Part shown: in pieces, positions 925 to 21,620 of the stretch
Position numbering within the stretch: the first letter of the stretch is position 1
Layout: each line of letters opens with the position of its first letter
Origin: a virus
Taxonomy: Duplodnaviria > Caudoviricetes
DNA: 57,373 bases
Strand: one strand, 5' to 3'
Virus record (IMG/VR): IMGVR_UViG_3300027708_000084
Coordinates: 1 to 57,373 of that record
Program-made: the position numbers and the translations under genes
The notes under the pieces: model-generated
The model's input: only the letters and a program-made list of their open reading frames with translations
Databases searched by the model: none
What the model was told of the DNA's origin: nothing

Positions 925-1915
925 ATTTAGTGAGTTGCTAGTTAACAAGAGCACTAGCGTAAAGCGTCTGAAATCATAAGCGCTTCTCTTAGATTGGGTG
1001 GAAAGCGGTCTTCAGCGCGATTGCGCTTTTGATGATACTTCCTTAATTGTGGTAAATATCCGAACCACAGCCCTTAGCCTCCATATATTAGTGACAACAT
1101 TAATATATGGGTGTTATGAGTGCCACGCACATGATTTGGCTTAACAACTTAATTGCAACCGAAATCTCTAGTTGCAGCCCTCCATTTTGCTGGGTTCGTC
1201 TATCGGTTAGGACGCTGCCCTTTCAAGGCGGAAAGACGAGTTCGATTCTCGTACCCAGTACCAAACTTTTGTAGATTAGGAATTTTTTGGAGTCTATAAA
1301 ATTTTGGTAGTCTGTTTTTAGTTTAGTGTTATCAGGGTATCGCTACAAGACGTTGTAGCTACGCGACAGTAAGCGTGCGAGCAACACTGTCTGATATAAC
1401 CGCCATTCGCTTGTCAGTGCTAGCTACATTTTTGACAAATAGGCACGATAATGCTAAACTAAAAATAGAAGCAATCAACTTGCTTGGGTTGTGGAACCCG
1501 AAACGTTGAGGAGTTTTTGTGCGATTTGAACATCCTTAAACTAAATCACATAGCTTGACACAGCTTTACCATGTTAGTTTTAACTGTGTTCTTAGAACAG
1601 TTCGTTAATGCAAGGCTATCGATAACGGTCTGCCAGTGGCGTGTTGTGCCCCTAGCTATAGGTTAATTAGTTCCACAGTGAAAGAACACTCTAAAAATAC
1701 AGCCATCATCTAAGCAAAGAGCCACGGCAGTGGTAATGTGAGTAACCAATCTCACTGGCGCACTTAGCAAAACCCCCTGCAAGGATTTACAGTCCTTGGC
1801 TTCGACCCTAGGTTGTAGCGTATGTAGACCATAGGCGGTTTGGCATTAGGTAGTCGTCAGGCTTTAAATCTCAACCTTACATGGTAGCAGAGCCTTAAAA
1901 AACTTGATCAGTTTC
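925..1915 (+). ncRNA. large structured non-coding RNA locus (GOLLD/ROOL-like candidate) with embedded tRNA
   Basis: About 1 kb with no ORF >=60 aa between promoter and terminator; many G-U-containing stems and long-range complementarities. Confidence 0.55.
1189..1263 (+). tRNA. tRNA-Glu(UUC)
   Basis: Cloverleaf; anticodon loop CTTTCAA; TTCGA T-loop; CCA. Confidence 0.9.
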
Positions 1916-19235: not shown

Positions 19236-20102
19236 ATGAAAATCGCAGTTTGCTCAGACTTGCACTTAGAGTTTGATACATTAACACTAAAAAATACTGA
19301 AAACGCACAAGTTTTAATCTTGGGCGGAGATATTTGCGTGGCTCGTGATTTACTGGACAAAGATAGCGTAGAAATATTTGACAGATTTGATCGTAGCGGT
19401 GGACTACACGAATTCTTCCAAATGTGCTGCCGTAACTTTAGTCACGTTGTGTATGTTGCTGGTAATCACGAGCACTACAACGGCGACTATGCCAAAACTT
19501 TTACAATTCTGCGTGATAGACTAGCGTACTTGCCCAACCTACACATCTTAGACAAACAAACATTTGTATTAGATGACGTTACCTTTATTGGCGGCACGCT
19601 GTGGACTGACATGAATAACGAAGACAGCATGACCTTACGTCATATCAAAGGCATGATGAATGATTTTCGTTGTGTCAATAATAGTAATAGTATAGTCAAT
19701 TTCAAGACGTTTGATGAAAATGGTAATGCTGAATTCAAAACACGTGTTGCTAAATTTTTACCAGAAGATGCTGTTGCAGACCACAAACTAATGATGAGTT
19801 ATGTTGCTGAAGTTATTTCAGGCAAATTTGACAAAAAGTTTGTGGTTGTTGGGCATCATGCTCCTAGTAAGGCATCAACTCATCCTCGCTATAAGTATGA
19901 AGAATTAATGAATGGTGCTTATAGCAGCGATCTAGATGACTTTATAATCGATCATCCACAAATCAAATTGTGGACTCATGGTCACACTCATGAAGACTTT
20001 GACTATCAAGTTGGCTCAACCAGAGTAGTTTGCAATCCACGTGGTTACGCAAACTATGAAGATCGTGCTGACAAGTTTCAGTTAAAGTTTGTAGAAGTAT
20101 AA
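19236..20102 (+). CDS. metallophosphoesterase (calcineurin-like)
   Basis: SDLH, GD, GNHE, HH.P, HGHTH motifs. Confidence 0.9.
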   Translation: MKIAVCSDLHLEFDTLTLKNTENAQVLILGGDICVARDLLDKDSVEIFDRFDRSGGLHEFFQMCCRNFSHVVYVAGNHEHYNGDYAKTFTILRDRLAYLPNLHILDKQTFVLDDVTFIGGTLWTDMNNEDSMTLRHIKGMMNDFRCVNNSNSIVNFKTFDENGNAEFKTRVAKFLPEDAVADHKLMMSYVAEVISGKFDKKFVVVGHHAPSKASTHPRYKYEELMNGAYSSDLDDFIIDHPQIKLWTHGHTHEDFDYQVGSTRVVCNPRGYANYEDRADKFQLKFVEV

Positions 20103-20107
20103 TTTAT

Positions 20108-20435
20108 TGTTGTATGAAGCAACGAGAACCGTGTCTTGGACGGGGGTGCGAATCCCCCCACCTCCACCATAAGGATTTTTATGTTTGATGAATGGCATTG
20201 GGTTTATCTATGGGGCATATTAATTTGGATAAATTATATGTTCTGTCTCATAAAAAGTCTTTATGATGGGGGTGACTAGTTTCGACAGGGCAAGTAGTAG
20301 CAGAGTGGACAACACATCAGAGCAGATGTTAAAACTAAACAAAAGTAAACGCAAACGACTCACAGTTCGCATTAGCAGCTTAAACACTGCTTAGGGTTTT
20401 TGGTAGGTTTCCTCGTAACAGAATAACCTACCGCT
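20108..20435 (+). ncRNA. ssrA: circularly permuted two-piece tmRNA
   Basis: Acceptor piece ends ...CACCTCCACCA at 20169; coding piece starts GGGGGTGA at 20268 (G3-U70 Ala identity); tag ANDSQFALAA* at 20351-20383; outer ends approximate. Confidence 0.88.
20181..20279 (+). CDS. 32-aa hydrophobic peptide encoded in the tmRNA intervening segment
   Basis: TAAGGA-N5-ATG; MFDEWHWVYLWGILIWINYMFCLIKSLYDGGD. Confidence 0.5.
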   Translation: MFDEWHWVYLWGILIWINYMFCLIKSLYDGGD

Positions 20436-20455
20436 TTACTAACGGATAAATAATT

Positions 20456-21464: not shown

Positions 21465-21540
21465 ATCCCTATCATCTAGCGGCCAAGGATAGCAGGTTTT
21501 CAGCCTGTTCACGTGGGTTCGAATCCCGCTAGGGATGCCA
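21465..21540 (+). tRNA. tRNA-Glu(UUC), second copy
   Basis: Loop TTTTCAG; G73; CCA. Confidence 0.88.
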
Positions 21541-21546
21541 AAATTT

Positions 21547-21620
21547 GCGGGTAAGCCTAAGGTAGGACGCCAGCCTTCCAAGCTGCGCTGAGTGGAGTTC
21601 GATTCTCCCTACCCGCTCCA
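21547..21620 (+). tRNA. tRNA-Gly(UCC)
   Basis: Loop CTTCCAA; GCGGGTA/TACCCGC acceptor; TCCA. Confidence 0.85.

Follow-up and report, generated by a model that had tools for sequence, protein, structure and literature searches.

Which kind of element is enclosed when an exceptionally long inverted repeat stands just 3' of a tRNA gene in a phage: a small RNA cut from a longer transcript, a ribozyme, an RNA switch, or a feature that acts as DNA? The question is raised by positions 1311-1469 of IMG/VR record IMGVR_UViG_3300027708_000084, an uncultured-virus contig of 57,373 bp (~54% complete) that was analyzed whole and is called the window in what follows. An earlier note, made from the letters of this DNA, had described the repeat as an RNA stem around a complex interior and had proposed an RNase III-excised small RNA, a switch or a ribozyme; this overall interpretation is partly supported by the present analysis. 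We find that 1311-1469, here called the module, is one copy of a conserved four-helix RNA of ~145-165 nt (helices P1, P2, P3/P3b and P4) whose fold is maintained by selection on the + strand RNA. The reading that we favor, with a probability of roughly 55%, is that the RNases that process tRNAs in the host excise the module as a discrete, structured RNA.

A conserved four-helix RNA on the + strand

Read directly from the sequence, TCTGTTTTTAGTTTAGTGTTATC at 1311-1333 pairs with GATAATGCTAAACTAAAAATAGA at 1447-1469 over 23 contiguous bp and encloses a 113-nt interior, exactly as described in the earlier note. Twenty of the 23 pairs (87%) are Watson-Crick, and the other three (G1314-U1466, U1327-G1453 and G1328-U1452) are G-U on the + strand and would be A-C mismatches if read on the - strand. 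P1 is the longest G-U-tolerant contiguous stem of the 57-kb window (span <=470), the maximum on the - strand being 19 bp; in 60 dinucleotide shuffles of the whole window the longest stem measured 15-20 bp each time and never reached 23 bp. The folding energy of the module is -55.1 kcal/mol on the + strand (z -4.44; equaled by 0 of 200 shuffles) and -45.4 kcal/mol on the - strand (z -2.60; equaled by 2 of 200). The three inner hairpins that the note had named, GCTACAA/TTGTAGC, GACAGT/ACTGTC and TTGTCA/TGACAA, are all present and coincide with the helices of the minimum-free-energy fold. The parts of the module are the following.

1311-1333, + strand: 5' arm of P1, forming 23 bp with 1447-1469; its inner 20 pairs were tested in the 41-sequence alignment
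1337-1362, + strand: P2a (1337-1339 with 1360-1362) and the P2 hairpin (1342-1348 with 1353-1359, loop GACG)
1365-1391, + strand: P3 (1365-1370 with 1386-1391) and P3b (1373-1374 with 1381-1382), with the invariant hexaloop GTGCGA at 1375-1380
1392-1410, + strand: J3/4, a mostly invariant single strand (CTGATATAAC...ATTCGC), with helix 5 (1402-1404 with 1442-1444)
1411-1438, + strand: P4 hairpin (1411-1416 with 1433-1438) with a 16-nt loop
1439-1446, + strand: J4/1 (AATAGGCAC), nearly invariant
1447-1469, + strand: 3' arm of P1, where the changes in close relatives all keep + strand pairs

Copies of the family were gathered by exact patterns from the invariant interior, a procedure that biases the sample to conserved members, and came from 55 loci that reduce to 42 distinct 159-nt copies, on contigs of about 4 to 168 kb from uncultured phages in IMG/VR and from lake metagenomes; the family as a whole probably has more members, and more diverse ones. 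The structure model P1-P2a/P2-P3/P3b-P4e/P4 (47 pairs, 1926 cells) was tested on 41 distinct sequences, in which 96.7% of the cells pair and 24 of the 47 pairs show both-side changes (202 cells). Its covariation score is 0.321 versus 0.032-0.066 with partners slid by 1-3 columns, controls in which 29-47% of the cells pair; 0 of 500 shuffles matched the observed pairing and covariation values, and a 13-sequence set gave the same outcome.

Compensatory changes were found in P1, P2, P3b and P4. Both-side changes affect 12 of the inner 20 pairs of P1 (98.2% of cells pair), 6 of the 10 pairs of P2a/P2 and 3 of the 6 pairs of P4, and the P3b pair 1374-1381 occurs as C-G, U-G or G-C. P3 is nearly constant, since 5 of its 6 pairs never vary and U1370-A1386 becomes C-G in 5 of the 41 sequences; in two divergent copies found by model search (L114, 146 bits; L115, 93 bits) it is fully compensated. 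Helix 5 pairs in 100% of cells, with two of its three pairs varying, mostly by one-sided C-G/U-G wobble exchange, and with C1403-G1443 replaced by U-A in 3 sequences. Little or no variation is seen at some 45 unpaired positions and in the inner 12 bp of P1; the interior, on whose conservation the earlier note had staked its proposal, is strongly conserved in the relatives. With the covariance model R1, the copy in the window reaches 181.8 bits on the + strand versus 17.9 bits on the - strand, and no second copy is found in the window. Covariation, the G-U pattern and this strand-specific score together bear out the suggestion that selection acts on the + strand RNA.

Another route to relatives was a conserved 17-mer downstream of the module (at 1697), which as a seed returned 14 true relatives among 19 IMG/VR hits, together with 44 metagenome loci; the five other hits (L008, L009, L011, L012 and L018) were dismissed as chance matches. 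Four distinct close relatives align through the module, at 90.9% (L032), 88.7% (L048, L058 and L065, which are identical), 84.8% (L025 and L050, likewise identical) and 79.0% identity (L060). All four leave the 5' arm of P1 unchanged, and the changes in the 3' arm, from AATG to AGCG or AGCA and, in L060, to three extra U-G pairs, all pair on the + strand. P2 passes from GCTACAA/TTGTAGC to GTGCTAA/TTAGCAC in L048, which amounts to four double changes, and P4 passes from TTGTCA/TGACAA to TTGTCT/AGACAA in close relatives.

The pseudoknot that had been proposed between GTGCTA at 1417-1422 and TAGGCAC at 1440-1446 did not stand up to the comparison: it is possible in the window, and it pairs in 69 of 78 cells with covariation absent and is broken by changes in L032, L025 and L067. 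Two tertiary candidates, GTGC 1375-1378 with GCAC 1443-1446 (50 of 52 cells) and GCGA 1377-1380 with TCGC 1407-1410 (52 of 52), are mutually exclusive and invariant, so that their pairing carries no covariation information. The P4 loop itself (1417-1432 in the window) comes in two types within the family. The majority loop, GTGCTAGCTACATTGT, holds the palindromes GCTAGC and TAGCTA and might permit kissing-loop dimerization; in L032, L081 and L114 the loop is GAGGAAGCACCTTT, which lengthens the stem instead.

Comparison with Rfam 15 (4227 models, judged by each family's gathering threshold) assigns the module to no known class. The whole window returns only tRNAs and a transfer-messenger RNA (tmRNA) at gathering thresholds, and 800-2400, searched at E up to 10, returns the tRNA and MIR5998 at 19.2 bits (threshold 180), with no GOLLD or ROOL, ribozyme, riboswitch or T-box. 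A typical array copy, L072, gave MIR5512 (16.4 bits), RAGATH-13 (13.2 bits, threshold 80, - strand) and SAM-SAH (12.1 bits), and we take all these hits, far under threshold, as chance matches to a long A/U-rich stem. A hammerhead identity was rejected on an absent core, no Rfam hammerhead hit and a different fold: neither CTGANGA...GAAA in the 1100 nt upstream of the core of the downstream RNA described below nor GAAA in 1311-1469 was found. An HDV-like or theta identity was rejected because the module's first bases pair with its last, with covariation, and no HDV-like Rfam model hits it. A tRNA, with or without an intron, was set aside in turn, ARAGORN (introns <=300 nt) calling only the flanking tRNAs, and no T-loop motif of the GTTCRANYC type was found in the module alignment.

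Placement at tRNA ends and in the window locus

The module is a self-contained unit: its 5' edge adjoins or overlaps the CCA of one tRNA, and its 3' edge often lies only a few bases short of the next tRNA. Almost all copies lie within tRNA arrays, on the same strand as the tRNAs; the module starts at a tRNA 3' end in 22 of the 42 copies (Glu 14, Asp 5, Gly 3), and in 30 of 42 the 159-nt frame ends no more than 24 nt from the start of a tRNA (Tyr 14, Ala 5, Lys 3, Leu 3, Thr 2, and Asp, Met and Cys). The location just 3' of a tRNA, which had been remarked on for the window alone, is a trait common to the whole family. In 16 of the 41 copies aligned, the CCA of the tRNA pairs in register with TGG at the end of the P1 3' arm, and six further rows with a one-base shorter stem show the same CCA/TGG pairing when judged by eye; P1 measures about 18-23 bp in the other copies, again counted by eye. 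In L074 the whole gap between tRNA-Asp and tRNA-Ala is occupied by the module.

The family was encountered in uncultured material. Among 50,697 cultured phage records no blastn match to the module appeared at E up to 1, a 4-kb query against the same records retrieved tRNAs only, and a pattern scan of 185,579 species genomes yielded 0 copies. We found no description of the family in the literature; it may be among the 8,495 IMG/VR candidate RNAs mentioned in the accessible part of PMC10690425.

In the window, the leader of a conserved, abundant non-coding RNA (ncRNA) contains tRNA-Glu and the module as a cassette. P1 stands within a 1.5-kb region without long open reading frames (685-2178) that has a small D5-like regulator gene on each side, and the + strand reads, in order, promoter-like site, leader, tRNA-Glu, 47-nt spacer, module, ~450 nt of non-coding sequence and terminator-like hairpin.

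887-916, + strand: promoter-like TTGATT-18-TATAAT with TG, a putative function assigned by consensus scan only
1042-1180, + strand: leader with two 'CTTAATTG-hairpin-GCCC' units (1042-1073 and 1148-1180)
1185-1463, + strand: 279-nt cassette of tRNA-Glu, spacer and nearly the whole module, missing from one related RNA contig
1189-1263, + strand: tRNA-Glu (UUC), called by ARAGORN and by the Rfam tRNA model (56.3 bits)
1264-1310, + strand: lineage-specific spacer between tRNA and module, present only in the window and L060
1474-1923, + strand: abundant downstream ncRNA with a conserved core at 1635-1808, seen in lake metatranscriptome contigs
1927-1953, + strand: terminator-like hairpin and T tract, with compensatory changes in L065 and L050

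The site at 887-916 would start a transcript that runs through leader, tRNA, module and ncRNA, and sister loci have comparable TTGAAG/TATAAT sites at the matching relative place. The second leader hairpin covaries, from TGCAAC/GTTGCA to GAAGAC/GTCTTC in L065, L058, L048, L050 and L025. In the window and L060 the tRNA-Glu lies 47 nt upstream of the module; the spacer is absent in the other three of the four close relatives, where the ACCA of the tRNA leads straight into the stem, joined directly to GTTTTTAG (L032, L048/58/65 and L025/50).

The core RNA at 1635-1808 shows compensatory change in 13 of 19 predicted pairs across 34 sequences and is represented by 41 distinct copies in IMG/VR and lake metagenomes. 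Within the RNA at 1474-1923 there are one hairpin whose loop reads AAAGAA, a stretch of invariant ATACAGCYATCATCTAA and two further hairpins that covary and are closed by AGCY/CTRGCG; nothing in Rfam matches this RNA, and the core shows no similarity to T5 rnaX or to any T5 tRNA-region RNA by blastn or nhmmer. A rule-based search covered the 450 nt before the core in 44 distinct sequences and found a complete type I hammerhead in 17 of them (L013, identical to L002, and L006, L007, L010, L014, L016, L019, L029, L037, L038, L041, L045, L052, L055, L057, L061 and L064), located 130-330 nt upstream of the core. These sister hammerheads consist of CUGAYGA, a covarying stem II, GAAA, a long, variable and covarying stem III and then a cleavage site after GUC or GUA, with a short (3-5 bp) covarying stem I; that of L002 lies under the Rfam threshold (Hammerhead_3, 20.1 bits). 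In most of them the GUC cleavage site falls within a copy of a repeated TTTAGGGTCAG motif.

None of the 5 distinct sequences of the window lineage has a hammerhead. There, tRNA-Glu and module follow the leader hairpin shared with the hammerhead loci, the 'CTTAATTG-hairpin-GCCC' unit being found upstream of the hammerhead in sister loci as well; in the L016 lineage the order is tRNA-Glu, promoter, hammerhead. L003 and L005 carry, 100-270 nt upstream of the core and instead of hammerhead or tRNA, a tRNA-like T arm (GGTGGTTCGAATCCACC) followed by a hairpin, which may be another processing signal at the same place. A candidate hammerhead remnant at 1479-1503 of the window (CTTGCTT...CCCGAAAC) was rejected, as its GAAA is not kept in L065 and L050 (AAAAAC). 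Because related complete genomes either lack the module (not found in G001 by R1 search) or carry a distant copy (136 nt after tRNA-Glu in G002 and directly after tRNA-Tyr in G003, both far from the ncRNA locus), we infer that the cassette moved from a tRNA array into the ncRNA locus.

Evidence at the RNA level consists of assembled contigs from three lake metatranscriptome runs (X2, X8 and X9) of three studies, whose ends and strand are not reliably read and which are weak evidence. The RNA contigs have depths of 1669 (1474-1800), 1731 (1524-1697), 185 (1668-1923) and 176 (1479-1834), and the flanking genes of the same runs have depths of 3-9; DNA-run contigs that closely match the window (records 5 and 8) have depths of 14-15, and one of them is continuous across 1226-1717. 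An RNA contig of X2 begins at 1474 and two of X9, from two strains, begin at 1479, which is 5-10 nt past P1 and outside its helix, and one X8 contig ends at 1923, with loose letters adjoining the ends that we take to be Illumina adapter. This is a weak hint that the contig ends are the fragment ends of an abundant + strand RNA starting 5-10 nt after P1. Over the module itself (bin 1201-1400) X2, X8 and X9 have hardly any cover, with a single X2 contig, of depth 3.1, at 1336-1486; contigs and standard libraries under-represent small structured RNAs, and the low cover is uninformative on a module RNA.

One X2 contig from a diverged relative (record 11, depth 765.6), aligned to 934-1546, joins 1184 to 1464 with 3 other letters between. 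It also differs from window 934-1184 by 18 other letters and 4 gaps, has further indels elsewhere, skips 390-933 and replaces 1547-1649; because it differs at so many other places, we attribute its junction to a difference between the genomes rather than to splicing of the RNA. On this reading, leader and core are made as one piece in at least one relative, with neither cassette nor hammerhead.

Proposed excision by tRNA-processing enzymes and the competing explanations

The proposal to which we give a probability of roughly 55% runs as follows. The module would be co-transcribed with its tRNA or tRNAs, and P1 would join its two ends beside the sites of tRNA processing, from where it could be released as a discrete RNA by RNase P at the next tRNA, by tRNA 3'-end enzymes, and by RNase III or E at or near the base of P1. 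RNase III substrates span about two helical turns, and the 23 contiguous pairs of P1 exceed the ~20 bp of near-perfect double-stranded RNA that this size corresponds to. In the window the same cuts would also part leader and tRNA-Glu from the downstream RNA, a job for which hammerhead self-cleavage upstream of that RNA would be the equivalent in sister phages, and the invariant loops would imply that the released RNA has a specific partner, be it a ligand, a protein or another RNA. That the module is excised as a small RNA, whether by RNase III as the earlier note had it or by tRNA-processing enzymes, is plausible but unproven.

Several points weigh against this proposal. Within 120-nt flanks, a tRNA just downstream was not found in 12 of 42 copies and one directly upstream was not found in 20 of 42. 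The contig data show no RNA species of module size. The contig starts at 1474-1479 may instead mark the beginning of a transcript: a consensus scan places a sigma-70-like TTGACA-17-TAAACT with TG at 1432-1460, within the module.

Some chance, though a limited one, must be granted to a cis-acting processing or insulating element, which would compact the spacer between tRNAs so that its neighbors, in the window tRNA-Glu and the downstream ncRNA, fold and are cut correctly, the excised piece being discarded. Such a role would suit a module that sits between tRNAs with 0-13 nt to spare, that draws CCA into P1 and that is followed by the core RNA which, in sister phages, has a processing ribozyme upstream of it; however, the strong conservation of ~45 unpaired positions and of the inner 12 bp of P1 on contigs of 4 to 168 kb exceeds what a spacer hairpin needs, most tRNA junctions of the same arrays do without a module, and the window lineage keeps the module, with compensatory changes, where no tRNA comes after it.

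We consider it improbable that the module represents a new class of self-cleaving ribozyme that cuts at or near its own boundaries, so frees a tRNA 3' end, the next 5' end or both, and is functionally exchangeable with the sister hammerheads. The many invariant unpaired nucleotides around a multi-helix junction, the placement upstream of the same conserved RNA as the sister hammerheads and the RNA contigs that begin just past the module would all fit such a class, as would the 22 of 42 copies whose first base comes immediately behind the CCA of a tRNA, reminiscent of the theta (HDV-like) ribozymes beside phage tRNAs in the accessible part of PMC10879173. Nevertheless, no known ribozyme class matches the module among the Rfam models at E up to 10, 1311-1469 lacks a CUGANGA...GAAA core, the covariation of the 5'-most with the 3'-most bases is not an HDV-like topology, and, with ~150 nt, the module exceeds the small self-cleaving classes in size; both of its ends in arrays are already accounted for by RNase P and the enzymes that act on tRNA 3' ends. 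We give similarly little credence to a broader form of this idea, in which a new class of catalytic RNA, self-cleaving or processing tRNA ends, is placed between tRNAs and the present lineage exchanged a hammerhead for it as the means of removing the leader from its most abundant ncRNA.

A feature of the DNA, whether a promoter for the downstream sequence, a palindrome that binds protein or forms a cruciform, or a small mobile element with inverted repeats, seems to us very improbable. The sigma-70-like site, with RNA contigs starting 14-19 nt after it, the presence or absence of the cassette among relatives and the likeness of the arms to terminal inverted repeats would speak for such a feature; against it, the three mismatches of P1, like all changes that relatives show in the 3' arm, are G-U on the + strand and would be A-C on the other, R1 separates the two strands by score, changes in the -35-like hexamer are compensated in the 5' strand of P4 (TTCACA with TGTGAG, TTGGCA with C-G), a start 7 nt after the -10-like hexamer would land inside the next tRNA in arrays, and no target-site duplication is visible at 1310/1470. 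A mobile inverted repeat or DNA palindrome was rejected on the one-stranded G-U pairs, the R1 scores of the two strands and the missing duplication.

T-box leaders read the 3' ends of tRNAs, and a ligand- or tRNA-sensing form of the RNA switch that the earlier note had suggested, alternating between two folds through a pairing of TGTAGCTA (1354-1361) with TAGCTACA (1421-1428), would find some encouragement in junction nucleotides as invariant as those of aptamers and in the TGG of P1 that pairs with the tRNA CCA; but the alternative pairing, possible in the window, holds in only 78 of 104 cells, with changes in P2 left uncompensated in the P4 loop, no riboswitch or T-box family in Rfam matches, and the module is followed by a tRNA or other RNA rather than by an expression platform such as a terminator or ribosome-binding site, so that we regard a switch as highly unlikely.

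The phage and the known RNAs of tRNA clusters

D5-like regulator hits, the relatives of its polymerase A, and a complement of 18 tRNAs and a permuted tmRNA suggest that the window phage belongs to a T5-like lineage; the closest cultured relatives of the polymerase, at 49% identity, are in 106-118-kb Salmonella phages. The tmRNA, of the two-piece type and with the tag ANDSQFALAA, lies at 20045-20438 inside the phage tRNA array, and its top Rfam match, the betaproteobacterial tmRNA model, hints at a betaproteobacterial host. Directly after the second tRNA-Glu (21465-21540) there is an extra weak tRNA-like match at 21547-21617 (30.8 bits, barely over threshold) that ARAGORN does not call. Around the ncRNA locus a GTTTAGGGTCAGA motif is repeated in both orientations (686-701 and 2183-2198, inverted at 2043-2057, and in many copies at 7300-7950 of L002); its copies bracket the promoters and both D5-like regulator genes and recur within the non-coding RNA of relatives, and the motif looks like an operator for the D5-like regulators. 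As a query, the 335-aa neighboring protein led to a single related locus, L002.

Several known systems share one trait or another with the module. According to the accessible part of PMC10879173, theta (HDV-like) ribozymes adjoin tRNAs of gut phages and are proposed to shape tRNA 3' ends; like the module, they are structured RNAs directly beside phage tRNA genes, whereas HDV-like ribozymes have a nested double pseudoknot with a P1 that begins at the cleavage site and the module pairs its first bases with its last. The type I hammerheads of sister phages stand, as the module does in the window, between a conserved leader and a conserved downstream RNA, and the role proposed for phage hammerheads is the division of long transcripts into separate pieces (PMC3088659, as far as its accessible part goes). 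GOLLD and ROOL occur near tRNA islands, and the GOLLD linker can hold tRNAs (10.1101/2024.12.08.627333, accessible part); the ~1-kb unit at 923-1953 resembles them as an ornate, highly expressed, phage-encoded RNA with a tRNA inside, and differs in matching neither their models nor any Rfam model other than that of the tRNA.

In the processing stalks of rRNA operons and in other RNase III hairpins, a long helix formed by the flanks surrounds an RNA that is excised from a tRNA-carrying precursor. The module shares with them the long closing helix, 23 bp here, and differs from them in that the inner 12 bp of its P1 keep their sequence and not just their pairing. The closest known kind are the stable RNAs of T5 (rnaI, rnaIII, rna1, rna2H, rnaIV, rna2, rna3 and rnaX) and T4 (species 1, rnaC, and species 2, rnaD), which, like the module, are non-tRNA RNAs on the tRNA strand in or beside a phage tRNA cluster, several of them abutting a tRNA, and are mostly 100-170 nt long (rna3, 73 nt; rnaX, 719 nt). 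In the T4 record tRNA-Arg, rnaD and rnaC are spaced by 1 and 6 nt; in the T5 record rnaIII abuts tRNA-His and rnaX abuts tRNA-Arg, and the RNAs are labeled 'stable RNA with unknown functions'. They differ from the module in showing no homology to it (R1, run with filters off on the 14-kb T5 and 5.5-kb T4 tRNA regions, gave at best 15.4 bits on a 54-nt hairpin), and rnaC has a tRNA-like T arm that the module lacks. T5 rnaX (L116, 40848-41566, 719 nt), directly upstream of tRNA-Arg, contains repeated ...TAAACTGGA motifs and, close to its 5' end, an element that resembles a T arm; its arrangement is analogous to the leader-tRNA-module-ncRNA unit of the window, with no detectable homology.

Set beside these RNAs, the present family is a well-defined extra RNA of phage tRNA clusters, with dozens of copies, a fold backed by covariation, a fixed relation to tRNA ends and, in R1, a model usable for further searches. 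It is a candidate for a new RNA catalysis or a new RNA-protein partnership, and the window locus offers a natural experiment in which an abundant phage RNA is preceded by a hammerhead, by tRNA-Glu and module, or, in at least one relative, by neither, making the role and the processing of the extra RNAs of tRNA clusters directly testable.

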